From positions 15,006,241-15,070,240 of the forward strand of contig JARDVH010000179.1 of assembly GCA_030324005.1 (NCBI GenBank): a stretch of DNA of 64,000 nt, read 5' to 3'. Shown here in pieces: positions 2,446 through 64,000 of this stretch (position 1 is the first letter of the stretch; every line of letters starts with the position of its first letter). Origin of the DNA: Negaprion brevirostris. Lineage: Eukaryota. Under the pieces are notes generated by a model, which was not told where the DNA came from, ran no database searches, and worked only from the letters and a program-made list of their open reading frames with translations. The translations under genes and the position numbers were made by a program.

Positions 2446-4019
2446 GGAACAGGCAAAAATGATTATAAAAAATGAAACAGTTGGATCCTCTGCACGAGTT
2501 ACTGTTTTGCATTTAGGACACTTATAATAATTGAAAGAAACAGTCCATTTCTATTCTGAAAACGTGTGTTTAAAAGTTGCTCTGGAAATTCAATGCTTTG
2601 TTCTTCCAACTTCCTCTTCTCTGATTCTTTCCCCCTAACTTTGCTGCCTCCTTCCTTTTCTGCATTTACTCAAATCTGCTGCCATTCTGTACAATGGACA
2701 TTGGCTACCCTCTTATACCACACCCAAATGCCAGTCATCAAATGCAAAACCATAGATTAAGTGCCAGCAAGTGCAGTCACAACTGAACATAAACTGGTCC
2801 TCCTCATGGTCTCATATTTTCAGCAGGAAATTGTGGACAGTAACACAGAACTGAAAATTCGGCTAACGTTTCTCCCTCCCTAATTCATGCTAATTGTGCC
2901 AACTCTCATCTTGACTGAGAATAACAGACTTATCAAACCTAGACCTTCCTGGTTGATATGATTGAGTGAGCTATTGGGAGCTTTCTTTTATGCCTTCGAC
3001 AACCAAGCATGAATAATTTGAGATACTGTGATAACTTGGAACTGTTTGCCAATTTGCCACTGTTTATCAAAGTCCAGGACAGCTGAACCAAGAGATCTGG
3101 TACATTACAGTCAAGAACTATTGAAATTGTAAGTTATATAGTTCACACTTTCAGCAGGTAAGGTGACAGTGTTGGAGAGTAGAACATTTTTAAAAAATTT
3201 TATATTCAATTTGGATCCAAAAAGCCTGGGCTGGATACCAGTTAGTACTAAACTGAATGTCTTCTTGATGTCCCNNNNNNNNNNNNNNNNNNNNNNNNNN
3301 NNNNNNNNNNNNNNNNNNNNNNNNNNNNNNNNNNNNNNNNNNNNNNNNNNNNNNNNNNNNNNNNNNNNNNNNNNCATGATCAGCCATGATTTTATCGAAG
3401 GGCTAGATGGCCTACTCCTGCTCCTATTTCATATGTTCTTATGATGTGTGCCCTGACAGTACAGTTCTTCAACTATTCAGCAGTGAAAGGCTGAGAAGTT
3501 TTCTTGCCGATGACTTTTAAAGCCATTATCCCCCCGGCTGTATTACAATACATTTCCAGGTCTATGATGTAAGCTGGGGAGGAGGCTTCAGAAAACCATG
3601 ATTTTGCTCCCTCTCTGTGCTTGGATTCAAAGGAGGTTGGGAGAAGGGGAGTTATTTCTTATTCTCAGCTCTTAAGCATTTTTTCTGATTAGTATCAGGT
3701 TGCTTAACTAGTGTTCCTAAAAGAGACAGCTCAAAAAGTGACTCCAAAATGGTCCTAGGAGCATTTATAGGCTCATCAATGCTGCCACCCACCTTGCCTT
3801 CTTTGTTTGGATCCCCCTCAATTTCTGACTTAGTTTCACAGAACAGTCACTTGACTCTTCCCTTCCAGAACCATTAGGCCTGGATGACCCATATTAATAT
3901 TGAGTTAAGTAGGAAATCTTCTAAAACCTGCACTGATGGGAGCAGGGTGGTAGGGAATTAGCCGTTTTATCGATAAATTTAAAGGTGAATCATTAAATGA
4001 GGTAGAACAAAAGATACTT

Positions 4020-14670: not shown

Positions 14671-16099
14671 CACTACTCTAAGAAAATCGCCTCTAAATAT
14701 GAGTAAATGGGTGGGCTTTATAATTATATAGGTAAAATAGAATAAGATCTATATGTTTGTTCACACATATAGTACCTCAAAAATCGCTTTAGAGATTAGG
14801 GGACATTGAAAGATGTTACAGAAGCATTCTTCCCATCAGCACAGAATTTCTAGATAAGCAGCATTGTTTGGAAGAACAGGAAATGTCAGAAAGGATTAGA
14901 GGACAGCAGGAAAAGCCCATGGATATAACAAAATAATCACAAAGGAAAATGTAAACATGGGAAGGTGAGGGAGAAAAGTTCAATGGGAATCCACTGGGTG
15001 GTGGTGCAGGAAGATGGAAATTTGATCTGTATTGATAGAGTTCTTTGTGCAAACCAAAATGAAGGGGCTAGCCTGGCTCCATTTCAATACCTTATCTCTT
15101 GAGAGTTGATTTTGTGAATATTGTGTTACTTTGCATGACTTTCACCGGGGAATTAGCCACAAATTGTGGAGTTTTTGCAAGCTAGCTGGGTTGTAAATGT
15201 TTAATGCACATCTTCGCTGCTATCATTCCTAACTCCCACCAATCACTGACCTTGTACTCTGATCCATTGCTCCACTCTCTCTTATACTGAACATAATCCA
15301 TTACAGTTCTCCCTCTTTAACTTTGAGGAGCCATAAAGTCTCGAAATGTTAACTGTTTTTCTCTCTCCACAGATGATGCCAGATGTGCTGAGTCTTTCTA
15401 GCATTTTTCTGTTTTTCTTTCAGATTCTAGCATCTATAGTAGTCTACCTTTATTTATATGAATGTTTAATTTTGGGATTATTTATTTTTGCTATTTTTAG
15501 TTTTATTTTTCACTTTTAGATCTACTTCAATTTTGAAATCAGAAGTCTGTTTACATATTTCTGTTGAACCCATAATCTTTCTGGTCTATACTGCAGCTCT
15601 ACAATGGGGGGAGTAATTAACCAAGGGAGGGTAGCCCTGCTTTTGGCTGAGAACTCATTGGGAAGGGTTGGTCTTATTAATACAATAAATATAAAACATA
15701 TCTATGTTCTGCTTTATGCTTATTTGAGGCTGGCTGAGCAAAATGTGGGATCACAGACAGAATGGTTCATGGGGTAATTAATCATAGTTTGATATTATTC
15801 AGTTGTGGAAACAGCTAAAATACTAACTGGACTGCTTATTTCTGAGGTCATGTAAAGGGTCAACACACAAGGTATGGAACAGGGGGGAGTGGAGAGCTTA
15901 ATAGTGAATGGGGAGGGAACATTTTTAAACTTGGATCACCCAGGGAAGAACAAGATAGGAGGAATAATTCTACTGGGGTAAGAAACAAGATCAGCCACTA
16001 CTGCTCATCAACAGTTTTTTGATTTGAATCACGGGCCCTAAGAGGCGCTTTGAGCGAACAGGAAGGACAGCTCCTGAAAGGAGGAGAGGTGATCAGGGA

Positions 16100-16530
16100 T
16101 AAAAACAGAAAACAGTGTAAACCTCAGTAGGTCTGGCAGTATCTGTGGACAGAGAAACAACATTAACATTTCGAGTCCATATACACTGAAGAAGTCATAA
16201 GGACTCAAAACATTCGCAGAAATCTTGCGGGCGTTTACACTGGCAGAATCTTACGGTCCCACTGGCAGCGCACCCCCACACCAGGTTTCTCAGCAGCCAA
16301 GGATGTATTCATTGGAAACCCCTGTTGACAATGGCGGGACCATAAGATCCCACTGCCAGTGAGTGGTGCACTGCCTCCTGCTGCCACGAAACACACCATG
16401 GAGGGACGGGAAAATCCCACCAAACAACTCTACAGTTTCTCTGTCCACAGCTGCTGCTAGGCCTGTTGAGTTTTTCCAGAATTTTTTATTTCAGATTTCA
16501 GTATTTACTGAAAGCAGTATTTTGCTTTTA
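16100..16530. mobile_element. Penelope-derived inverted-repeat element (third family) interrupted by a MITE at about 16216-16422
   Basis: Arm aaaacagaaaa...ctcagtaggtctggcagtatctgtggacagagaaac is complementary to gtttctctgtccacagctgctgctaggcctgttgagtttttccag; decayed core ctgaagaagtcataaggactcaaaac; the insert ends ggaaaatcccacc. Confidence 0.55.
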
Positions 16531-40984: not shown

Positions 40985-41340
40985 AAATGTATTTTTTCTT
41001 TATCTTTTTCATAGGATGTTGGCACCATTGGCAATTGTTTCCTATTCCTAATTGCCTTTGAACCAAGGAGCTTGCTCAACCATTTCAGAGGGCAGTTAAG
41101 AGTCATCCATATTGCTGTGGGTCTGGAGTCACATGTAGGATAGATTTTCCCTAATGGACATTACTGTACTAGATGGGTTTTTATGACAATGACAGTTTCA
41201 TTGTCACTATTATTGAGACTTGCTTTATATTAAATTAAATTCCACTAGCTGCTGTAGTGCGATTTGAACCCATGTCTACTGGACATTAGCCTGGGCTGCC
41301 AGATTAATAGTCCAGTGGCATCGCCACTACACCACTGTCT
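40985..41340 (-). mobile_element. tRNA-derived SINE, near full length
   Basis: Reverse complement of the 32190-32590 family; head at gatttgaacccatgtc...ccagtggcatcgccactacacca. Confidence 0.75.
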
Positions 41341-42629: not shown

Positions 42630-44374
42630 CTATAAAAGCGAGGTCAATGAACAAACAGGACAGTTAAACATTAATGTCTCCTTGTCTCTGCTGGTTGCAT
42701 TTGACAAGAATGGCACTTAAAGAAGACTCCCAAAAAACAAGTCTGGCCATCATCCAATCATGTAAAAGAATGGGTTTCCTTGTTAAAATATATATAGGTA
42801 TATATNNNNNNNNNNNNNNNNNNNNNNNNNNNNNNNNNNNNNNNNNNNNNNNNNNNNNNNNNNNNNNNNNNNNNNNNNNNNNNNNNNNNNNNNNNNNNNN
42901 NNNNNNNNNNNNNNNNNNNNNNNNNNNNNNNNNNNNNNNNNNNNNNNNNNNNNNNNNNNNNNNNNNNNNNNNNNNNNNNNNNNNNNNNNNNNNNNNNNNN
43001 NNNNNNNNNNNNNNNNNNNNNNNNNNNNNNNNNNNNNNNNNNNNNNNNNNNNNNNNNNNNNNNNNNNNNNNNNNNNNNNNNNNNNNNNNNNNNNNNNNNA
43101 GTTTATCAGTGGTCTGATTCAACTATCAAATACCCTCAGAATGGCAAAGAAAAATTAAAGTTGAGCAGACTTATACATATTGATATGTATAAGAAGAAAT
43201 CAAAATAAATCCTTTAACCTAACCCACTGGCTCTTCATTCATCTCATCTTCCTTTTTACTTGTTTCCATTTTGCTCTTGCCCTGCTTGTTTTAAAAACTT
43301 GTGCTTCTTGTTTCTTACATTGTTTCTTCATGGTGCTTTTTCCAAACCATATCCTTTGACACACAGTTAAGAAAGAAAGAGGCAGCAAGACTACACTACA
43401 AGGATTCTTGGGCAGATGATTATGTTCAGCACATGGAGTGGTATGAACATTTCAATTGCCTGGACACCAGGATAAAAATGTAAAAGGCTGACACAGCAGT
43501 CTTTTGGCAAGGACCATCCCACTCTTGGAACAGATTTTTATAAACACGAAAAAGTTTTTTACACTAGGCAGACGATAAATTCATTTACTTTGGGACCCTT
43601 ATTATAGAAACTTTCACCATCATTATAGACTAGATTCAACTCGGGTTTTAAAAGGTGAAAGGACACTACTAATTCATCGCTCAATATTGTCCCATCCTAA
43701 TGTATTTAATAATTTTGTTCAAATAAAGTATTCGTATTTTATTTAGTTTGCTACTTTTTAAAATTTCAAATCGTCAATGGATCACACATATATCATCAGA
43801 GTGTTAATCTCTTTCAATATATTGCTGTTTGTATGAAGGATTCTTAATAAGTCGCCCACAGATGTTTCAAAATCTCCATCACCCATATCAGGTAACAGAG
43901 GCAGCAGGTCAGTCATACACATGCATAAGTTTTAAATGCATCAGTGACCAAACACAAGGAAAGGGCCCAAAGCAGGGAGTGAGGTCCACAGGCTTGGAGG
44001 AGAAACACGAACCAAAAGGATTTTTTTCTGGCTCTAAAGCTCTAAAAAGTAATCCATTTAAAAAAAAGTGTATGTAAACAAGTGCGTTGCAATTTCAGTA
44101 CCTGTGGTAAAATCCCTTTCCCTTTAATATAATCTCATTGTATTTGATAATCCAACTATTGAAGCGTGTAGGGAAGATGCTGTTAAGATTGAAAGATAGG
44201 TTTGAGTTGAATGGTGTATTTTATAAAGGAAGAGTTGACATTAGAGAGGTGATCATAATAGGCTGAGGGTTGACAAGCTCCTTATAGATTGTGATAGTCC
44301 CTGAGCTACTACAACCTCCTCATTGAGTAAAACATTTAAAAAGGATGTCTACTGTAGGATATAACAATACGTAT

Positions 44375-44605
44375 TCTGGAGTGTAAACAAAACGTGCTGA
44401 AAAATTCAGCAGGTCTGGCAACATCTGTGGAGAAAGAAACAGAGATAACATTTCAAATCCAATAGGATTTCTTCAGAACTGAGAGTACCAAAGTCATATT
44501 GGACTCAAAACATTCAATTCTGTTTCTTTCTCTACAGAAGTTGCTGGATCTGCTGAGTTTTTTCCCAGCATTTTCATTTCTATTTCATATCTCCAGCATC
44601 TGCAG
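44375..44605. mobile_element. Penelope-derived inverted-repeat element (third family)
   Basis: tgctgaaaaattcagcaggtctggcaacatctgtggagaaagaaacaga pairs with tctgtttctttctctacagaagttgctggatctgctgagttttttcccagca; decayed hammerhead halves in the centre. Confidence 0.65.
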
Positions 44606-49645: not shown

Positions 49646-50029
49646 ACAACTTTCTTCCCAGCAGGTTGGTTGCTATGGATCTCCAGCCCTTTCTGTCCAG
49701 TGTTGTCCTTCCACCTCCCACAATAACCCACTGCCTCGAGTCCATTATATCCATCATCCATTTTCTCTTCTGCTCCCCTCTCCTACCTTTTCTCTCGACC
49801 CATCTCTCCAATTATTGATGAGACTACATAGAAACACAGAAATATAAAAATGAGAAGCAGGAGTAGGCCATTCAGCCCTTCAGGCCTGCTTTGCCATTCA
49901 TTTTAGTCATGGCTGATCATCAAATTCAATATCGTGAACCCGCCAACTGCATCTCGAATACTGAATACTGTTCTGATTGCCTCATTTGAGGAAGGATGCA
50001 TATGAGTTGGAGGCAGTTCTGAGGAGGTT

Positions 50030-50402
50030 TACTCAATTGATGCCTGGAATGAGCTGATTTATGAGGATAGGTTGGACAGGCTGGACTTGTTTCTGCTGGA
50101 GTTGAGAAGAGTGAAGGGTGACTTGACCGAAGAATAGAAGATCCTGAACGGTCTTCACAAGATGGACGTGGAAAGGATGTTTCCTCTTGTGGGTGAGTCA
50201 GAATTAGGGTGAATTGTTTTAAAATTATAGTAAGAAGTCTCACAACACCCTGATCAGAGAACCTTCCGCCCACCTGACAAAGGAACACCGTTTCTGAAAG
50301 CTTGTGGGATTACTATCAAATAAACTGGTTGGACTTAAACCTGGTGTTGTGAGGATTCTTACTGTGTTTACCCCAGTTTAAGGCTGGCATCTCTACATCA
50401 TG
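50030..50402 (+). mobile_element. CR1 fragment (50030-50222) followed by a Penelope terminal fragment with an inverted 5' piece and a hammerhead motif (50271-50306)
   Basis: agtaagaagtctcacaacacc at 50229 is the inverse of ggtgttgtgagacttcttact; cac CTGACAA a ggaac acc gtttct GAAA GCTT gtg. Confidence 0.65.
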
Positions 50403-52339
50403 CTAATTCAATCCAGGGCCGGGAGAGGATGGTGCAGTCCTAATCATCTGGGTGCCTGCCTTCAGGGGCAGAGGCTTGGGCAGCACTGCACCCTTTCTCA
50501 AGGGGTCACCTGCTTGCTGGATGTGCACCCAATCAAGTGGGTAGTGGTTCCAGCGTTTGAAATCTGATCGGCCTGGAGCGAGCATTCAAGTCTGAGTGGC
50601 CATTTGCTTTGATAGGTGCATTCTGGTTGGTGTAGTCCTCTCTTGACCCTCCTCTTGCCCTCCCACATAGGTGCCAGCCCATTAAAGAGCTACAGGAATC
50701 AAGGAGGAGAAGCTAGGAGGAGCAGCAACAGTGAAGTCCAGGACAGCTGAATTATTAGACAGGGTTCTGAGGAAGAGTATGAGGATGGAACATTCTTTAT
50801 GGGCTAAATGGCCTTTTTTGCTTTGATTTCTTAAATTTATTTTTTCTTATGATTCATAATTTAACAATTATTTAAATCTTGTTTATGGCTGATGCAGAGT
50901 AAACATGACCTCTAAGCTATGGAACGTGAGAAATTACTTAGTACAAACTTGTGATATAGTTTGGGAGTATGAGGAGAAGTAAAACATTAAGAAGGGAAGT
51001 CTGTATTCTGTACCATTTTGACTGAACTCCTTTTGGCTGATGTTGATTCACAATGCCTAGTTTCAGATGAAGATATTTTGCAGCCACTTTAATTGGGATC
51101 AATTTTAACAGCAAGTGTGCAAAGACAGGCAGGTGCGAAAGAGGGTAGTTGGGAAAATAACACATAATGATTCCTACCAGTTGAAGATTGGATGGTTGTG
51201 GGCATAGGAAGTCCTTACTTAGTGTCGTTAATTGGTTCTGGAAAATGCAACATTCTGAGGCTCAAAAGTACCTTGTCAGATTGCTTGCTCCCCACCTTAC
51301 CTGAGACCCAGCTGTTGCAGGTTCAACAGGGGAGAATTAATGCAAAACAGCAGCAATGCAATGCAAAAGAAGAGTTCTAATTGGAGAGTGGAATTAAAGC
51401 AAAAAATTCTACAGAGTGACATTATAATGTGGAGAAATGTTCTCAAAGGTTCCTGCAGAAGGGACGAGGAGCTTTTCTGGGCAATAAAGGCTTTGAGTTT
51501 CTTTGTTGGAACTGAAGAAGCATTCCTTCTCTCCAGGTCCGGGATGCTATGGTAGTTCCTTTCTCAAGCTCCAGTTGAAATGCCATCAGGACACATTGAC
51601 ATCAAATGATCCTGTTTATCATTTATGCAGGAGGACCACACTCAAGTCCAACAAATGTATCATCTACTGCCAAGACCAGCAAGATCAGAACAAGAGATAG
51701 AGCCATCCTATTTTAATTGATAATCACCCACTAGCCCCTCCCACAGTAATTCTGTGAACAGTAATGTTGAGTCTCACAACTTGAGATTGAAAATAGTGTT
51801 AATTAGCACAAACAAATTATGAGTAGAAATAATTTATGAAATAGATCAGAAATAAATGTTGCAATATCCTAAATTAAGATTTTTGATAGATTGAGGCACT
51901 ACATTAGTGAATCATCAGAGGCATACGATGCTGATGTAATAATGATGCAAAACAAAATGATTCAGTAACAGATCTGGAGGGAGCAGTAGTTCCAACCTCG
52001 TCCCAATAAGCATATAGTGGCCGAGAATAAAGAGCAATGGTTTTAATGAACTACATTCTCAAGGAGCTTACTTTGGGAGGTCCTCACATGACGAAACAAT
52101 CCCTATCCTACCTAATCCGCTTGGTAGCATATTGCTTCCAATTTAAGATTCCTGTCGTCATATTAAGCTCACTTCATGGACTCTCCCTATTTCTGCAAGT
52201 TCCTCTATCCCTATGTCTTCATACTAAATCCTGTTATTCTCACTTTGATCGCTTGTTTATTCCCTGACGTCCGTTTCCCTATCCCTTTGGTTATCATGCC
52301 TTCAACTGCCTGGATTCCACAACTTTTTTCTGTAAAATA

Positions 52340-53215
52340 TAGAACTGATCTCAGAGAGCTATCTAATTCATCCCTCTCCTCTGGTCTTTCCCAATAGCCT
52401 TGTAAGTTGCTCCTTTTCAAATATATATTTAATTCTCTTTTGATTGCTACAAATTGAATCTACTCCTTTTGAACAGCAATTTCATGTTATAACAACACGT
52501 AAAAAACACCTCCTTCTGTTCTTTTTGCCAACTATGTTAACTCTCTGCCTTCTGGTTTCTGAATCCCTTGCCAGTGCATACCGTTTCTCTTTAATTATTC
52601 CATCTAAACCATAATTTTAACATCTGTATGAAGTTACACATTAACCTTCTCTGCTCAAAGAAGAGTCCCAACTCTTCAGTCTATCTACATAACTGAAATC
52701 CCTCATCACTGGTACCATTCTAGCAAATCTCCTTCTGCACCCCGTTCAAGCACTTGACATCCTTGCTACAGTGCGATGCTCAGATTTGTCTACAACCTGT
52801 CTACACTTCCCGCTGCCTCGGCAAAGCAGCCAGCATAATTAAAGACCGCACGCAACCAGACATTCTCTCTTCCATCTTCTTCCGCCAGGAAAAAGATACA
52901 AAAGTTTGAGGTCACATACAAATTGGCTCAAGAACAGCTTCCTCCCTGTTGCTGTCAGACTTTTGAATGGACTTACCTCGTATGAAGTTGATCGTTCTCT
53001 ACACCCTAGCTATGACTGTAACACTACATTCTGCATTCTCTCGTTTCCTTCTCTATGAACGGTAAGTTTTGTCTGTATAGTGTACAAGAAACAATACTTT
53101 TCACTGTATGTTAATACATGTGACAATAATAGATCAAATCAAATCAGATTTGGACACAATACTCAAGCTTAATCTATGATAAATAAGGGTTTAACGTCGC
53201 CTCCTTGCTTTTCCT
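52340..53215. mobile_element. Old CR1 fragment (minus) with a younger Rex1/Babar-like 3' end inserted at about 52795-53147 (plus)
   Basis: CR1 sequence resumes after the insert with tcagatttg repeated on both sides; the insert reads cgctgcctcggcaaagcagccagcataattaaagacc...tcaagaacagcttc... and has a (tcaaa)n tail. Confidence 0.65.
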
Positions 53216-53334
53216 ATTTCTTCATCATGTGTTATTAAATTGTGAATCTCACTCAGAAACAGAAGTAGAGTTATGTAGGAAATGGTGTTGTCATGGTTGC
53301 TTTTCATTGCATAAGATTTTTAATGTATACTTAC

Positions 53335-53418
53335 CCAGAATTCCGTCACTAATATATCAGTGACACTGCCCAGGACTGTGACAAAATCAAATATATTCCA
53401 AGCATCCTGAAAATAGTT
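53335..53418 (-). CDS. CACNA1A: Exon 31 (84 nt): [28 protein letters not shown] (IVS3)
   Basis: Acceptor ttttgctttgcag, donor TGG|gtaagt; WNIFDF motif of S3. Confidence 0.95.
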
Positions 53419-54122
53419 CTGCAAAGCAAAAGATAACACGGTTAGAAATGCTGAATTTTGAAGCAATTTTCTCCCTCGTCCCCTGTGCTGGCTTACCCTG
53501 AACTATGGACCTCACTAGTTCACCTGTATCTCCCATTGTACTTATTTATGTATCATTTCAGGCAGAGTGTGCTGGGAAATTATTGGGACTATAAGGCACC
53601 ATAACAAAGCTTGGTTCTGTCCTCAACCTGATATCCATAAGCACACTTTTCTGCATGAACCATTTGACACTGATCAGGACTGAGAGTCTTGGATACTTTC
53701 CCTCCCTTTTCTTGGGCCAGAGTTGCTACAGCCAAATGCAGCAGAAGCAAGTGCTACCTTAGTTTGATCAACTGATTCAGAGGATCTTGGAAGGAATGCT
53801 ACAGTTGATTTCAATGTTCCTTCGCTTGGAAGGGAAAAAAAAATCAATTGGTTTTGCCATTCACATTCACTGTCCAGTATTGTCAGCTGAAAAATGCATG
53901 CGTGTAAATGTTGGTAAGGATGTGTCCAGTGTCCAGGTAATGCCCCCTTAGTTGAAAGGTCCCCAACACTTATGTCTACTCACATATCAAGAATAGCCAC
54001 TTAGTTCAGCAAAGGATCAGTTTCAGCATCTGTAGAACTATATCCTGCAAGAATCAATGTTTTCAGGAGGAGGGGAAGGGGGACAAAATTTAGAGAATAG
54101 AAAATTCATTCCATGTACTCAC

Positions 54123-54233
54123 CAGAATTCCAAAGGCAATAATTTTCAGGATACATTCACATGAGAACAAAACGGTGAACACCATATTGAGATACTTTAG
54201 AACGTCATCGTAAGACTGTGGCTGACCTGAAAA
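54123..54233 (-). CDS. CACNA1A: Exon 30 (111 nt): FSGQPQSYDDVLKYLNMVFTVLFSCECILKIIAFGIL (IVS2)
   Basis: Acceptor ttcttggtttag, donor CTG|gtgagt; ECxLK motif of S2. Confidence 0.94.
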
Positions 54234-55369
54234 CTAAACCAAGAAAAAGAGGATTTAGTTACTAACGCTACATGTCCATTATATGGGTAATGGAGGCAGG
54301 AGGGAAAGATCATGAAAGCTTGTTAATTGACACGTTGGCACAAGTGAGGTTATCTATCATGGTGTCACTGGAGAATCAAAACCGCCGATTTTAGCAGTCA
54401 CCATAGAGTTTACAGCATATATATATATACAGACTATTAACCCATTATGTCAGTGCTCATTCTTCACTAAAACAATCTAAAATGAGTCCCTGTGCTTTCC
54501 CCAAAGTCCTGTATATTTTTCTAATTCAAATATCCATCCATGCTTCCCTTCAAAGTGCGATGTTTACTGTTCAAACTGCTTCTTGTGGTAAAGCATTTTA
54601 TGTAAAAGAAATTCTCCACAAAATATAAATTATCCTGACCTCACTCTCATTAAACTTGAAACTTTCTGATTCTGCACCAACAGAAATAGCTTGCTGTACT
54701 GGACTGTTCAACATTCCTCACAGTTTTAAAACCCCCATTAAATTTCCTTTTAGCATTCTCTTCTTCAGTGGAAACAAGGAATTGATTGGTGACTGGGAGA
54801 ATTCTCTACATAAAGGCATCACTGTTGAAATAGCCCCATTAAATGTCATCAACTGTAATCTGTCACATCATTTGTAAAACTTGCGCTGCCTCAGTAAACA
54901 TTACCTTTGGTAGCCAGTTGTCTATTGCTGTGGAATAAAAACAGAAAATGCTGGAAAACTCAGCACGCCAGGCAGCGACTGTCAAGAGGCTTGGTTGGGA
55001 AGTGGGAGGTGCAGGGGAATCCCAGCATTCTGCTAAGTGAGATGGTCAAAATCAAGAATTGGGGAGAGAATAAGGAAAGGAATCCTTGGGGTGGGGGATC
55101 AATGGCTTTGGGGGGGGATGCCTTGGAGAATGACTGGGGATGAAGTGAGAGGCCTTGGATGGAGGAGTTGAGGCCTCATAGGGAGAGTCAAATGTGGGTG
55201 GAGGAAGGGTGCCTAATTGCAGGCAGGCACGCTAGATCCAGCAGGTAAATAAAGAGGAAGTCACCTTCAAAGTCTGGCAGCGCTTCCTGAGATTATCTGC
55301 CAGGTTTCCCAAGGTTCAGGAAACACAAACACCCACAGTAAAATTTCCAATGGGGCTCTACTATAATGG

Positions 55370-55680
55370 GGCCAACATTAATTACCAATTCCTAATTGCC
55401 CTTGATGAGGTGATGGTGAATGGCCTTCTTGAACCGCTGCAGTCAGACTTTCTAACGATTTGCTAGGCCATTCCAGGGCAGCAGTTAAGAGTGAACCATA
55501 TTATTGTGGATTCGGAGTTACGTGTAGGTTGGACCAGGTAAGGACAACAGATTTCTTTCCCTAAAGGACATTGTTGAAGCACACAGGTGTTTCTGACAAT
55601 TGACAATGGCTTTAGAATCACTATTAGTGAGACTAGTTTTTAATTCCAGAATTGAATTAATTGAATTTAAATTCAGCACC
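55370..55680 (-). mobile_element. tRNA-derived SINE or partner-LINE tail
   Basis: cctaattgcccttga...gcagttaagagtgaaccat...ttccctaaaggacatt; same family as 40985-41340. Confidence 0.65.
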
Positions 55681-56380
55681 TCATTTTGATCAAACACATA
55701 TAGTTTGCAATGCCTCCCACCTGCTACTTCATGCTGATCTATTCAGCCCACCCAAGGTGTGACTCCCATCAAAAAGGCTGATCTGGAAAAACCAACCCAC
55801 ACAATGCAATTTCCACCTAGGCAAATGACACAACGAACAAGTACCTGGTCTCAAACCTAACCCAACAGCTGTTTCTGGTTTCAACCTTCCAAGCTAAAAG
55901 TGCTCTACCCTCAACAGGTTCAGGACCAGCCACACCTGATTGTCCAACCACCACAGATGGGGCATTAGTGCCACCCCTTATGTGTCTGTGGGAGAGAGCA
56001 AACTACACATGACATCATAGAAGTGTGTCCAATCCACAGACTCAGCAGAGGCCTATCTGCACTCAACACAGTAGGACCAGAAAAAAACTGCTTGGCTTAT
56101 GGACTTTGCAATTGCTAAATAAATAAAATAAATTAGCCTGGATTACTAGTCCAGTGACATTACACCATCTCTTCAGATAAAATACATTGATATAGCTGAT
56201 AAAGAAATACATGAATAGGGTATTTATGAAGTTGAATAGGGTCATGTTAAATTTAAATTTAAATGTTAAATTTAAGCCAGTCTTTAGCTGTTCACAGGAA
56301 GCATACAATGTCAACAAATCGAGCATTTATCACCCATTCCAAAGCAACTCAGTGGCTTATTAGGCTATTCCCTAGGGAAG

Positions 56381-57055
56381 TTAAGAGGGGTTGGAAAAAA
56401 ATAGGTCAGGGATAGGTGGGAGGTAGGAGAAGAATGTCACCTCTGTGGGGTTTGTCATTGATTCAATCTGTTGTTCATGTATCCCAGTTTATCCAGCCTT
56501 TCCTAATAACTCAAACCATCAAGTCCCAGTAGCATCCTAGTAAATCTTTTTTGCACTTTTTCTAATAATATTTGCCACGAATTAACCAGACTTGCAAGGA
56601 TGGCAAATTTCCTTCCCTAAAAGATATTAGTGAACAGATGGGTTTTTACAGCAATTAGTAATAGCTTTTTTTCCAGACTTATTTCATTAATATTAAAGAG
56701 GAGTCACAGATAAACAAGATGGTGAAGAACACATTCAGCATGCTTGGTTTCATCGGTGAGAACACTGAAGACAGGAGTTGGGACGGCTTGTTGAAGTTAT
56801 ACAAGACATTGGTAAGGCCACAATTGGAATACTGTGTACAGTATTCCACTCAATTATAGAAAGGATATTATTAGAAAAAGTGCAAAAAAGATTGATTAGG
56901 ATGCTACTGGGACTTGATGGTTTGAGTTATTAGGAAAGGCTGGATAAACTGGGATACATGAACAACAGATTGGATCAATGACAATCCCCACAGAGGTGAC
57001 ATTCTTCTCCTACCTCCCACCTATCCCTGACCTATTTTTTTCCAACCCCTCTTAA
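56381..57055. repeat. Long inverted repeat: 191-bp arms (56381-56571 and 56865-57055), 293-bp spacer
   Basis: Arms aligned by eye with about 4 mismatches. Confidence 0.92.
56700..56955 (+). mobile_element. CR1 LINE ORF2 fragment
   Basis: cattggtaaggccacaattggaatactgtgtacagt (LVRPQLEYCVQ) motif. Confidence 0.75.
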
Positions 57056-57293
57056 ACACTATAAAATCCATCACACCTCTCCCTCTCATATGGGCTCAAA
57101 ATGTTAACTCTGTTTATCTTTCCACAGACGCTGTCAGATCTTCTGGGTTTTTCCAGAATTTTCTGTTTTTATTCCTTTGGTATTGATAGTCACCTGGAAG
57201 CGTGTGTCAATAAGATAATGAGAGGCATTGGTGCCAGAACGCAAACAGCAAAAATTTGAAGCAAAAGGCAGAAAACCAAAGAATGGAAATTTA

Positions 57294-57467
<174 letters not shown>

Positions 57468-60400
57468 CTACAAAAGATAAAATAATAGGTCAATTCAGCA
57501 GAAACAAAATCATAACATTGTATAACATATATATTCCTTCCGATACAAGGAAGTGCTGAGCTCTTTCCTAAGCAACATCATTAAGCTAAATACTTGCTTT
57601 GCCCATCCCAGTTAACACTGTGCTCCCCACGAAGAAGTCTACCAATTTACTGCCATTTTCACATTCCATCTACACTGACCATGATCGTGATTCAGACTAC
57701 CCTAAATTCAATGCAGCAGGAACCTACAACCAACTGCTTTTTAATCTCTCCATCTGAACTGGATTCAATAAATTTCTGAGCTCTGAGGAATCGTAACTAG
57801 GAGGGTATCCCAAAGATGCAGTGGGGCCCACTTCTTGTGGGTGCCCACATAATCAGCGCACAGCAATTGCTTGGAAAGTTCAACCTCATGTTGGGCAATG
57901 TTTTTGCAAGTGGAACCATCCTAAAGGAAGATATAAATCAGAAACTTAAGATGCTTCTCATTTTATTATGGTAATTGTTCCCCAGAAAAAGTCAGAAATA
58001 ATTAGAACCACTTCTGGATTCTGCGTAACAATAGTACTGACACTCCACTCTACCACAAGTGATTCCTCCCACCTCCCTGACACCCCAAGGTACATCCCTA
58101 ACTCACCCTCCACCACCACCTGATTAATCCCTCCTGCCCCTAGCCCGCACAGATCTCCCCCCACACTGCTAACCAGCCCCCACAAGACCCCCCGTACCAC
58201 TCATGAACCCACCGTCCTCCCCATCCCATGTGATTCCATGCCAATGAAACACCCTAACTATGAGCCCCTCTCCCTACTGACCCCCAATCCTTTCCTACAT
58301 CCCCCCAAAACCCCTCTGAGAAGCCCCATCCAACTAGTCCTCAACCCCCATGGGACTGCCCGAACTCCCACGATGCTCCAAGACTGCCCCCTCCTCCCCC
58401 NNNNNNNNNNNNNNNNNNNNNNNNNNNNNNNNNNNNNCACCTCCTGGTCCATGTCCCCTCTGACCAAACCCACCCCAATCCAACCACCTGAAGTCCAATC
58501 CTATGTTTTTACATAACAAACATGCCTTCTCGCTGGCTTCTCAAAGCGGCTGGACCTTTAAACGTACCTACTTTATAGCAGTTGTGCCATAACAATGGTG
58601 CATTTCTTCTTTATCTGACTCAGGTTCCCTTGATACAAGCCCTCAGGAACCTCCTGAATTATACCTGCCCAGCCTGAGTTGGAAGATTGGATGAGCGGTT
58701 TCATTTCTGGGTAATTAGGTAAAAAAGGAGTGACAGTCCAACTCTGATTACTCCTCCACAAAAGGTTTGGATAGAGTGTCATCTAGTTTCCACAGAGAAG
58801 TTGCACCAGATTCAGGACACACTCCCATTCCCAATAACAAAGCAACAGGTCACATCATTCTATAGTGGCATAGCATCTCATGTAAAAAAGACTTTTTTTT
58901 TATTACATAAAATATAAATGTAAGGTGCAGTACTGACCCAATCTTCGGATAATTTTTTTAACTCTTGTGGTTTATATAACATTATTGGACCCTTATGATA
59001 AGATCATTAGTTGATAATTAACTTATCAATATTCACTCTCTTCCTCTCTGTCTCTGTGAACGATTAAAGCACCTGGATGCTGTGATGGGAACACTGGATG
59101 ATCTTTCTGGGAAGATGAGTTATAAAAGGTCAACTGGTCTTTCATATCCACATTGATCTTGCAAAACTGCTTTGAAAACTGCCTTTATATGGAGATATAT
59201 TTTGTCTGAACGTCACGCTATTAGTTCAAATACCTTGGTGGGAAATATAAAGGGAAGTAAGTCAAAAGTTGGAAGCAAGTGTCAGCTCATGAAAAGGGGA
59301 TCTGAGACAACTTAAAAAAAACAAGATTGTATTATGTTTGTTACAAAGGTTGATTACGGCTGTACTGGTCCACAGACAACTGGGAAAAGCAACATAAAAC
59401 TAGATGGAACAGTGCGTATATAAAATGCAAAATCATTGAGAGTTACTAGTCTCTGGACAGGGGAGATGGAATCTAACATGTCCCAGAACCAAGGCTGCAG
59501 TATAAATCAGATCCCAACAGCCAGGAGAGGTGTAATTTTAGCTGGTCCTTGCAAGCAGAAACGAACTATATCCAATATTCCAGGTACCTGGGATGATTTA
59601 TAATGTTTTATTAGGTTCCAAAATCAACTCAAGCTACAAATACCTTTATAACATATGTTCCCATAAATAATGTGATGCTTATCCCAATGTTACTCTCAAC
59701 CGTGTCAGTCATCATTCACTTCAGAGGACATTTTTAAGGCTATGAGGAGATTTGACAAAATTGGTTTAGAACAAACTTAACTGCGGTGAAGAGTTCAAGT
59801 ACCAGATGATACAAATTAAAAATTAGAAAATTTACTTGTATTACATTCCCCAATTTGAGAAACAATTTGATTAATCCAAGACAAAAGTTGCATTGTGCAA
59901 TACAAAAGGAAATTAACAGACAATCTTTTCGAGGAGGATAGTAGTACTGAAACTGAAGCATACTGGAGTTTAAGAGACAGTTGGGTGGCTGTGAAAAGGG
60001 AAAAAAGTTGTGGAGGTGAGGTTGAGATCTATTAAATAGAGCAGGCTGATTGAACCCAATGACCAGCTCCTGATCCTAGAAATTCTTGTGTGTATTCTAG
60101 AGAAACTTAACATCCACAGGCCAAAGAACAACACTGACGTAAGACAGCAGCCAGCAACGTAAACAAAAACAGGAAATGCTGGAGAAATTCAGCAGGTTTG
60201 ATAAAGGGTCATTCAGACTGAAACAGTGCCTCTATTCTCTCCACAGATGCTGTCAGACTTGCTGAGTTTCTCCAGCATTTTCAGTTTTTGCTTCAGATTC
60301 CTGCATCCGCAGTGTTTTATCTTTAACCAGCAACTTAACCCAGCTCCTAGAACAATGACAAATACTACCTTGTGCATACTATAAAGGGTTGTCTGAGATA

Positions 60401-60849
60401 CCATGCAGAAATTCAATCTTGTGCTTCAGATTAAATTGAATCCTCGAATGCAGTTAGTACCCCAGACATAAGGTTTAGGGTGATTTACGAACATAAGAAC
60501 ATAAGAAATAGGAGCAGGAGTAGGCCATCTAGCCCCTCGAGCCTGCCCCGCCATTCAATAAGATCNNNNNNNNNNNNNNNNNNNNNNNNNNNNNNNNNNN
60601 NNNNNNNNNNNNNNNNNNNNNNNNNNNNNNNNNNNNNNNNNNNNNNNNNNNNNNNNNNNNNNNNNTTTTGAATAATAATCCCTCCTACTATTATGTATGC
60701 CAAAGTGGATAACCTCACACTTGCTAACATTATACTCCATGTATTATCATTTCAGATGTAATTCCATAATCCCTCACATAATCCGCAATTATTGTGCTGG
60801 AACACACTCCAATATTTTAGTGCTGTGTCCAAGTGTCAGCATCAAGGAT

Positions 60850-63135
60850 TGCCAGAGAACGTCAAGGAGTTGAGAAGGGATTGCAAAGGTTAGGCTGGAT
60901 CTGCCCAGACCAGCTGGGAGTGTACGGGAATATGCTGCTAGATGGCAACATGGCACAATCCATGGGGAAAGGCATCATTACCCTCATCTACAAGCAGAAG
61001 GGGGAGAGGGATAAATTTAGAAATTGGCGGCCCATTTCACAGTTGAACATGGACTATAAAATTCTGTCCAAGATCATTTCCAACCAGGTCAAGTCTACTC
61101 TGGAGTCGGTGATCCATCCTGACCTGTGCTGTATCCAGCAGGAAGATCTCGGATAGCCTTGCAATTCTCAGGGATACAACTGCCCAAGTGCAGGAAAGGA
61201 GGCGGACACCCTCTTCATCAGCCTGGACCAGGAGAAGGCATCTGACAGAATATTGCACATTTGCATGCTAGATGTGGTCTCCAAAATGGGGTTTGGGGAA
61301 TAAATCCACAGTTGGATCCAACTGCTCTACACAAACATTAGTAGCACAGTTAAATCAATGAATGGGAATAAGAAGATTTTCAGATCAAATCTGGATCAGG
61401 TAGGGTTACCCTCTCTCTTCTGTCCTGTTTGTGTATTGCATTGAGTCTTTTGCCGAATCCATCAGGCAGGATCCGGGCACAGGAGGAGTGACGATCCCAG
61501 GCAGCGGATGCACATAGGTCAAAACCTTCCTGTACAAGGATAATGTCACTGTTTTCTGCTCCGATCTGATATCATTGCATGGGCTCCTGAATGGCTGCAG
61601 CCAGTTTGAACTGGACTTGGGAGTCAAGGTAAACTGGGGCAGAAGCGAAGCCATGTTCTTTAGGAACTGGGACGACCGATCCTTTGCTTCTTCATTATCA
61701 GAACAGATTTCCTGAAGGTGCTGGGAATATGATTCGGAGTAGCTGCAGCATGCACCAAAAACTGGGAGGATCATACTGCCAAGGTAAAGCTGGGAATGTG
61801 GGAGCAATGTTTCCTCTCCATTGCAGGAAAAAAACCTGGTCATCCGGTGTGAGGTTCTCTCGGCGTTGGTGTATGTAGCACAGGTCTGGCCCATACCCTG
61901 AATCTGTGCGGTATCAGTCACCTGAGCCATCTTTAAATTCACTTGGAGATCCAGAAGGCACCATGCACAAATTTCTGGATAAGGGAGGAGAAAAAGTACT
62001 CAATGCCACCCTCATCCTGGTGACCACGTTTGTGCGCGGTGGCATCAAGTTGTGTGTAGATCCTTGGTATGCAAACACCAAGTGTCGCCACATACAGAGA
62101 TTCTACCTTTCCCTGATGTTGTGGGGGATGCGCTGGCCACATTGCCATGGAATGCTTCAAGTAGTTGGACCATACCTTATCACCTGTCCCTCATGGAAAG
62201 CTTCATGCCAAGAAATACCTTTGACCACAAGTCGATCAAGCAGTGGCCTGAGCATAATGTCCTCAAGGCCCTGAGGGAAAAGGAGATGGGAGATGGTTCT
62301 TGAGCAGATTGTAAAAACAATTTTGGCAGAAAGCCTCATCATCAGAACTTTCAAATAAGCACCCAGACGTAGTCTGGGTTGTGGTGAGAAGGGCACTAGC
62401 CACCTGATCCTTCCTATACGCCCAAGTCTCTGCACCACCACACACTGTCCTCAAAGTGGCTGTGAGGAGAGGGGAAATGATACAGTCACAGACCATGCCT
62501 TTACAAAGGTCTGGAGAGAGATGCGGTGATATTTGTTGAGGTTCATCCCGAGTGATGCAGGATTCTGTGCTTTGCGGATTATTTCCAGGGACGTACACTG
62601 AGACAAACATCAGCTGCTGTTGGAGGATCATCAACTCAGTGAAAGACACTCTTTGGTCTGCCCAATAGCTGTTGATCTACCAGTGCAAAGGACTGTCCTC
62701 CACCGAGTGTTTCAGACTGGCACATTCCAAGGTCCAGGACTATGTGCTGAGGAACACTCTCCAGCTTGGGGTAGCCACCATCAAGGTGCAATGGGGAAAG
62801 GCCAGTATGTAAGGTGTTTCAGCCAATGTACTCTGAGTGGCTAGTAATTGTGTAAAACCGCCTAGACGGAGTGTTTAATTCTAACTGCACATAACTGTAT
62901 TGAAGCACTGCAGAGTGCAACATGACCAATGTATATAGTTTGTAAAGAATTGTACTCTCGAGATTTAAAATATTGAAATGTTTGTGATGTACTTATTCCT
63001 GAATTGAAGCACCACAGGGTGTATCTTGATCTCTAGAGGAAATATGAACAGCATTGCACTTCACTGTTATAACTATTTGACATGTTTTGTAATGTTTCTT
63101 TCAGATTATTTTATGAACAAAGTATATTTTTGCAA
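60850..63135 (+). mobile_element. Tx1/L1-clade non-LTR retrotransposon, 5'-truncated, ORF2 pseudogenised
   Basis: GIITLIYKQKGERDKFRNWRPISQLNMDYKILSKII, LDQEKA.DR, G.PLSSVLFVYCIESF, multiple stops and frameshifts; 3' UTR ends aacaaagtatatttttg. Confidence 0.85.
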
Positions 63136-63340
63136 ATGAAAAACCTTTCACTGTGACCCAACACCATAATCAGAAGCTGCACTGCTCCACATTTCCCTTT
63201 GAGATTCCTCCCAGGCTGTATCTATCATAGCGTCCACCTTATGAACTACAACATTTCTAATTCAACACTAATTATTTATAGCCTACATGTAATTAATTCC
63301 TGACCATACATTAGTTTGACTTCCAAAGAGTACATTGCTA

Positions 63341-63850
<510 letters not shown>

Positions 63851-64000
63851 TTAGTCAGGGGGTGGGGGCTAGTTAAGGTTTGTCGATGGGGGTCAGGTGG
63901 TCAGTGGGACTGGGGAGGTAGTTGGGACTGGGTGTAGTCGAATGATGACGGGGAGAGTGTGGGCAGTAGTCAGGAGTGAGGCGAGGTTACTGGTGGAGGA

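Follow-up and report, generated by a model that had tools for sequence, protein, structure and literature searches.

A long inverted templated insertion in an intron of a CACNA1A-like gene and its probable origin in a local template switch

Short-range template switches are mutations in which a short ancestral stretch is swapped for the reverse complement of pre-existing nearby sequence, with short homology at the switch points, and a spaced inverted repeat can thereby be built in one step. Among the orders in which the switch points may fall, type 1-4-3-2/3-2-1-4 creates an inverted repeat and has been reported for 31% of high-confidence human-chimp events, with inter-strand switching favoured in the four-point model (PMC5453318). 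A human individual carries 3,049–3,934 template-switch patterns, with a mean of about 12 bp in unmasked sequence and a longest pattern of 318 bp (PMC9435742), and a gold-standard set from apes has a median of 12 and a maximum of 128 (PMC7954356). Another described system, MMB-TI, comprises inverted insertions placed near their template, with 2–12 bp of microhomology at both junctions, and these have been reported among germline variants (PMC8421209).

The locus described here lies in a window of 64 kb, by which is meant the whole stretch of DNA that was analysed, and to judge from the sequences compared it is a genuine inverted templated insertion of 182 nt, specific to this lineage, which provides a long new example of this known class of mutation. 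Most probably it arose when DNA synthesis in the lineage of this species underwent a single local switch of template, and the stem that it produced is probably neutral. The order of its switch points is type 1-4-3-2/3-2-1-4, with the ancestral flanks colinear and point 1 before point 4. Both the 182-nt tract and the jump of 297–478 nt place it in the far upper tail of short-range template switches, for which size maxima are 97–180 in unmasked human sets and 318 with repeats included, the genome here being non-mammalian; since the longest reported event is 318 and a typical one about 12, the insertion is long but within the range of its class. The resemblance to MMB-TI extends to an inverted insertion near its template and to microhomology at both junctions (7 and 2 bp here), but the template limit in that search was 100 bp, as against 293 bp here, and no larger rearrangement is seen at this locus.

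As a class, such a mutation is unsurprising, thousands of shorter events having been catalogued per human genome. What the locus offers is a well-resolved long template-switch mutation outside mammals, with its ancestral allele, its donor and both of its junctions in hand, and it supports the view that long intronic RNA duplexes can be built at a single stroke, without the insertion of a second transposon. A limited search of the literature on template-switch inverted duplications and on CACNA1A RNA editing did not find this locus, which does not prove its absence there.

The inverted repeat and its host intron

The repeat consists of two arms of 191 nt, at 56381–56571 and 56865–57055, which are complementary at 187 of 191 positions (98%) and are separated by a spacer of 293 nt (56572–56864, plus-strand numbering) made up of the remaining SINE and the 5′ part of a LINE fragment. 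It is the longest of the 39 inverted pairs found in the 64-kb window, 25 of which were listed. A preliminary description of the window had put the identity of the arms at about 98% and had noted that nearby transposable elements are more diverged, and both statements hold: among local pieces, paralogs elsewhere in the window reach 70–88% identity for the SINE, 62.6% for the LINE piece and 67–83% for a third repeat. The arms mismatch at four positions (56451/56985, 56463/56973, 56540/56896 and 56542/56894). When folded as RNA, the repeat gave z = -53.8 on the plus strand and z = -30.9 on the sense (minus) strand, with none of 20 shuffles equally good in either case.

The right arm (56865–57055, plus strand) runs from the 3′ fragment of a LINE, through about 50 nt of single-copy sequence, into the start of another dispersed repeat. 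The LINE fragment is presumably a CR1 element, and two open reading frames within it had no match in Pfam. The left arm interrupts a SINE copy on the minus strand at 56318–56691, delimited through alignments to four paralogs in the window; a tRNA-like head is absent at 56318–56691 and was seen only in a paralog, with its B box at 41270. Farther away, in the upstream intron, a reverse-transcriptase fragment of a broken LINE occupies 60821–61156, with a match to Pfam RVT_1 (E 1.1e-05) that falls short of the curated cut-off.

The duplicated unit crosses the boundary between the LINE fragment and unrelated sequence, as had been noticed from the window itself. Moreover, 5 nt present in contigs of the LINE family are missing from both arms (in each of the four sequencing runs compared below, a loose end follows 56564), and because both arms share this deletion the left arm must have been copied from the neighbouring LINE fragment rather than inserted separately. 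The shared deletion, together with the crossing of the element boundary, rules out two independent insertions of transposable elements. The middle of the unit, 56959–56995, is covered by one contig in each related organism, at depths of 7.9–12.8, as against LINE bins with a summed depth of 1e5–1e6. A dispersed terminal repeat is thereby rejected as the source of the arm, so that recurrence of the unit as a transposon end, which by the preliminary description would have told against its reading, does not apply. The terminal repeat of a DNA transposon or MITE was likewise rejected: the empty site lacks the left arm only, 8 nt were lost there, and a target-site duplication is lacking.

Both arms lie within an intron of 3,069 nt on the minus strand (54234–57302), as placed by its boundary coordinates. 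The exon upstream of it, at 57303–57467 on the minus strand, is 165 nt long and encodes 55 amino acids, and a PDB match marks it as CACNA1A-like (Cav2.1). The best PDB match for its last 42 amino acids is the P/Q-type channel alpha-1A (E 2.2e-25), as against 3.8e-21 for the R-type and 1e-20 for the N-type channel; Pfam returned no match for this same 42-residue piece, which together with the two LINE-fragment frames makes three unmatched proteins among six submitted. The exon is taken here to be exon 29 and to encode the end of the III-IV linker together with IVS1, and the source organism is presumed to be a shark. The hairpin begins 247 nt past the exon donor, close to the 250 nt or so given earlier, and ends 2,146 nt ahead of the true acceptor. 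No real splice site lies in the arms or the spacer, no exon lies between the arms, and a search of Rfam over 50000–64000 gave no match at E<=1.

Empty site, junctions and age

Contigs of four among 21 listed public runs (X1, X4, X9 and X15) were aligned over 55900–57500, and the orthologous pieces were hand-picked among the matches listed, with short, more diverged pieces left out as paralogs. Over these hand-picked pieces, the window differs from X1 at 3 of 952 bases, from X4 at 21 of 973, from X9 at 18 of 1,039 and from X15 at 70 of 1,131. X1 is nearly identical to the window and may be the very sample used for its assembly; X4, X9 and X15 represent three related organisms that are about 1.7–6.2% diverged from it. 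In each of these three, one contig joins 56387 directly to 56570 and skips 182 bases, with eight letters between the two positions in X4 and X15, the runs for which the letters were listed, and presumably also in X9, whose contig is identical in length and layout to that of X4. The right arm is joined to the exon-side flank in all three (56925–57500 in X4, 56917–57500 in X15 and 56925–57173 in X9). Because these relatives have the right arm in place and are without the left arm, the right arm is identified as the donor, with the left arm as the later addition. The left arm is thus missing from the orthologous site in all three relatives compared, as the preliminary description had anticipated for related species, and an empty site beside a donor in place is what its proposal of a microhomology-mediated template switch, with the left arm as the new copy, had called for.

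The event added 182 nt and removed 8 nt of ancestral SINE sequence. The new sequence, at 56388–56569 on the plus strand, is a reverse-complement copy of 56867–57048, and the donor tract lies 297–478 nt from the insertion. At the outer junction, the 7-bp microhomology TTAAGAG (56381–56387, plus strand) pre-existed in the SINE and is the reverse complement of 57049–57055; that this 7-mer is common to the SINE and the donor end had been recognized from the window itself. At the inner junction, the microhomology amounts to 2 bp (56570–56571, plus strand), or to six of eight bases when imperfect matches are counted, and 56570 is where X4, X9 and X15 resume. Homology of at least 7 bp at a random junction had a chance of 0.0006 in 2,000,000 draws, and homology of at least 2 bp occurred in 16% of draws. 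Each arm appears to be 191 nt long because seven outer and two inner bases matched already, and the 191-bp duplication reported earlier is therefore correct as to the length of the arms but not as to the amount of new sequence. The same description had roughly 40 bp of the SINE replaced, and here the orthologous contigs correct it to 8 nt. Relative to other copies of the SINE, the locus is seemingly short by about 23–37 nt, and beyond the 8 nt this shortfall is older than the event because the relatives are without those bases too.

The four differences between the arms probably represent three events, those at 56894 and 56896 probably being one because they are two bases apart. With three events, divergence amounts to 0.8% per arm (95% CI 0.16–2.3), and window-specific changes elsewhere come to about 1.0% (5 of 523 bases, hand-counted among the rows listed). 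The insertion is younger than the split from the relatives that are 2% diverged and may fall anywhere on that branch, with a point estimate that is early. A mutation rate reported for sharks, 7e-10 per generation with a CI of 1.4–14.1e-10, comes from a single species and is too loose for dating (PMC10587355). All of the arm differences (56894, 56896, 56973 and 56985) are apparently derived on the donor arm, with polarity set by outgroups for two of them and by a single paralog of 62.6% identity for the other two. The two-sided p for this bias is 0.25 with n=3 and 0.125 with n=4, values for which it is taken as chance rather than as a trace of error-prone synthesis.

Template switch, break repair or artefact

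The mechanism that the junctions point to is a polymerase switch. The growing strand would halt at TTAAGAG in the SINE and re-prime some hundreds of bases farther on, where the opposite strand offers the complementary 7-mer. A tract of 182 nt would then be copied backwards from the donor, and synthesis would return to its original template through the 2-bp (6/8 imperfect) match, with 8 nt skipped. A mirror route, beginning at the inner junction and using the 7-mer last, would lead to an identical and indistinguishable product. In either case, the outcome would be a 191-bp intronic stem, for which hyper-editing on transcription and removal with the intron would be probable.

Another means by which the same product could be made is the repair of a double-strand break, whether by snap-back SD-MMEJ, by a polymerase-theta type of joining or by MMBIR. 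A resected right-hand end would fold back and be extended by 189 nt, after which its new 7-nt end would anneal to the left-hand end. The small net deletion (8 nt) and the combination of a weak match at one junction with a longer match at the other correspond to the layout of snap-back SD-MMEJ (PMC5728401), and inverted templated insertions with 2–12 bp of homology do occur in the human germline (PMC8421209). Moreover, this route is kept in play because a tract of 182 nt, taken from 297–478 nt away, far exceeds the usual size of a template switch. The structures reported for SD-MMEJ, however, are found no farther than about 30 bp from the break and are mostly less than 10 bp apart (PMC5728401), whereas a loop of about 297 nt and synthesis of 182 nt would be needed here, well beyond that priming distance. 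Break repair by any of these routes is thus considered unlikely, and so is the particular fold-back of the right-hand end just described; replication switch and break repair leave products that are the same in sequence and are inseparable by that means alone. Less probable again, to the point of being very unlikely, is an assembly or library artefact, such as a chimera produced by fold-back, or a mosaic built from two haplotypes or from an inverted one. The window does contain assembly gaps (14 N runs, 1,655 N), and no listed piece covers the whole stretch; no X1 piece among the 32 rows listed covers the inner junction, and X1 has zero depth at the listed sites in 56959–56995, a gap for which the collapse of both arms into one contig would account. 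Nevertheless, an X1 contig at 56134–56515 crosses the outer junction and reaches 128 bases into the arm, at a depth (8.9) like that of other single-copy X1 pieces (5–12), which upholds the earlier reading of the left arm as genuine, with the proviso that X1 is possibly the window's own sample. The joint from 56387 to 56570 is absent from the X1 contigs, a form of assembly from which variants may be dropped.

An artefact is also unlikely because the arms differ from one another at four sites, as against the 3 of 952 bases at which X1 departs from the window, because the left arm has the base of the relatives at both of the sites that can be checked, and because the inner junction coincides with the very position at which the relatives pick up again. 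At 56973 and 56985, X4, X9 and X15 all have A, which is the state on the left arm, and a copy of the present donor made during assembly or amplification is therefore disfavoured. A 2-bp match would, in addition, presumably be too short for an assembler to join upon.

A smaller structure of a similar kind lies 16 bp from the inner end of the donor. This perfect palindrome in the LINE fragment (56825–56848) has arms of 11 bp around a loop of 2 nt, and perfect short-loop palindromes of this arm length number two in the window and zero in each of 10 shuffles. Because contigs of the LINE family depart from the sequence of the window after 56842, a few bases were apparently overwritten to perfect the stem, and the palindrome is probably a second, small template-switch event. 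The only other such palindrome in the window, at 43170–43193, is AT-rich.

Possible consequences for the host transcript

The hairpin is most likely neutral, a reading that follows from its absence in the relatives, the lack of any exon between its arms and the distance of 2,146 nt to the real acceptor. If transcribed, the 191-bp duplex would likely be hyper-edited, as would be expected of any long duplex. The preliminary description had drawn attention to A-C mismatches, and these are indeed present, at two of the four mismatched positions on the sense (minus) strand (the others being one A-A and one U-C). Their adenosines stand in GAA and AAU contexts, with UAG at neither site. Across animals, repeat-derived duplexes are reported to undergo hyper-editing commonly, and coding regions to be nearly free of it (PMC5625713), a pattern that speaks against editing of the exon.

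It is conceivable, but highly improbable, that the hairpin is functional in Cav2.1 transcripts, either by recruiting ADAR to a stem in the upstream exon or by masking a strengthened cryptic acceptor. The precedent for the former is Gabra-3, in which a 66-bp intronic stem located 150 nt from the edited site induces editing (PMC3479170). The predicted arrangement here is similar in having a long intronic stem shortly downstream of an ion-channel exon, and an intra-exon stem is predicted to form between 57366–57385 and 57412–57430, about 310 nt from the duplex, with pair probabilities of 0.75–1.0 and with adenosines at recoding positions T14, H16, M17, Q19 and Q30 of the exon. In contrast to the conserved Gabra-3 element, the hairpin is absent from all three relatives; there is no known edited site in the exon, and the distance between the duplex and the exonic stem is roughly double. 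Moreover, the exon with its flank folds no better than shuffled sequences (z -1.59; 6 of 100 as good), and none of these adenosines is preceded by a 5′ U.

The candidate for masking is an acceptor-like site on the minus strand at 56372–56412, for which the SINE provides the AG (56373–56372) and the insert a pyrimidine tract and a branch-like motif. Judged by two crude pyrimidine counts, which served as the only measure of splice-site strength, this AG ranks first among 182 in the intron, with 17 of 21 and 31 of 39 pyrimidines, as against 16 of 21 and 24 of 39 for the true acceptor; in like-for-like windows, the relatives have 15 of 21 and 23 of 39 and the window 17 of 21 and 32 of 39. The pyrimidine tract is predicted to be paired in the hairpin (unpaired probability 0.03), and the hairpin may therefore mask a signal that the insert itself brought, a possible reason why the allele is tolerated. 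Against any functional use of the site, no GT that comes near the donor consensus, as judged by eye, lies within 320 nt downstream, and before the event the AG already came close to the true acceptor, with 15/21 pyrimidines as against 16/21. The boldest version, in which one switch would have equipped a single species with an RNA regulator of Cav2.1 that needed no further steps and combines ADAR-induced recoding with a stem-hidden acceptor open to unmasking by editing, is very unlikely.

Other roles were considered and rejected. Template-switch hairpins that became miRNAs share with this locus an intronic position, an origin in one event and transcription with the host gene, but their stems of about 35 bp and short loops differ from the 191-bp stem and 293-nt loop seen here, and annotated miRNAs number 57 among 6,054 suitable hairpins (PMC10710096). 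A miRNA precursor was dismissed on account of size, and exon looping or circular RNA formation because there is no exon between the arms. The fragile site suggested in the preliminary description is unlikely as well, given the long spacer of 293 bp: stalling of eukaryotic forks is reported with a 12-bp spacer and not with one of 52 bp, and a repeat spaced by 280 bp is reported to be stable in wild-type yeast (PMC7999016).

Should the duplex alter the editing or splicing of Cav2.1 after all, its weight would be greater, because relatives only 2% away are without the hairpin and offer a natural with/without comparison as a direct control. Older and weaker intronic inverted repeats also occur in the window, at 44400–44562, 60161–60293 and 15333–16182, as head-to-head pairs of one dispersed repeat (41–85 nt, 71–86%). 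The same family, which appears to resemble the end of a Penelope-like element, covers about 57008–57176.
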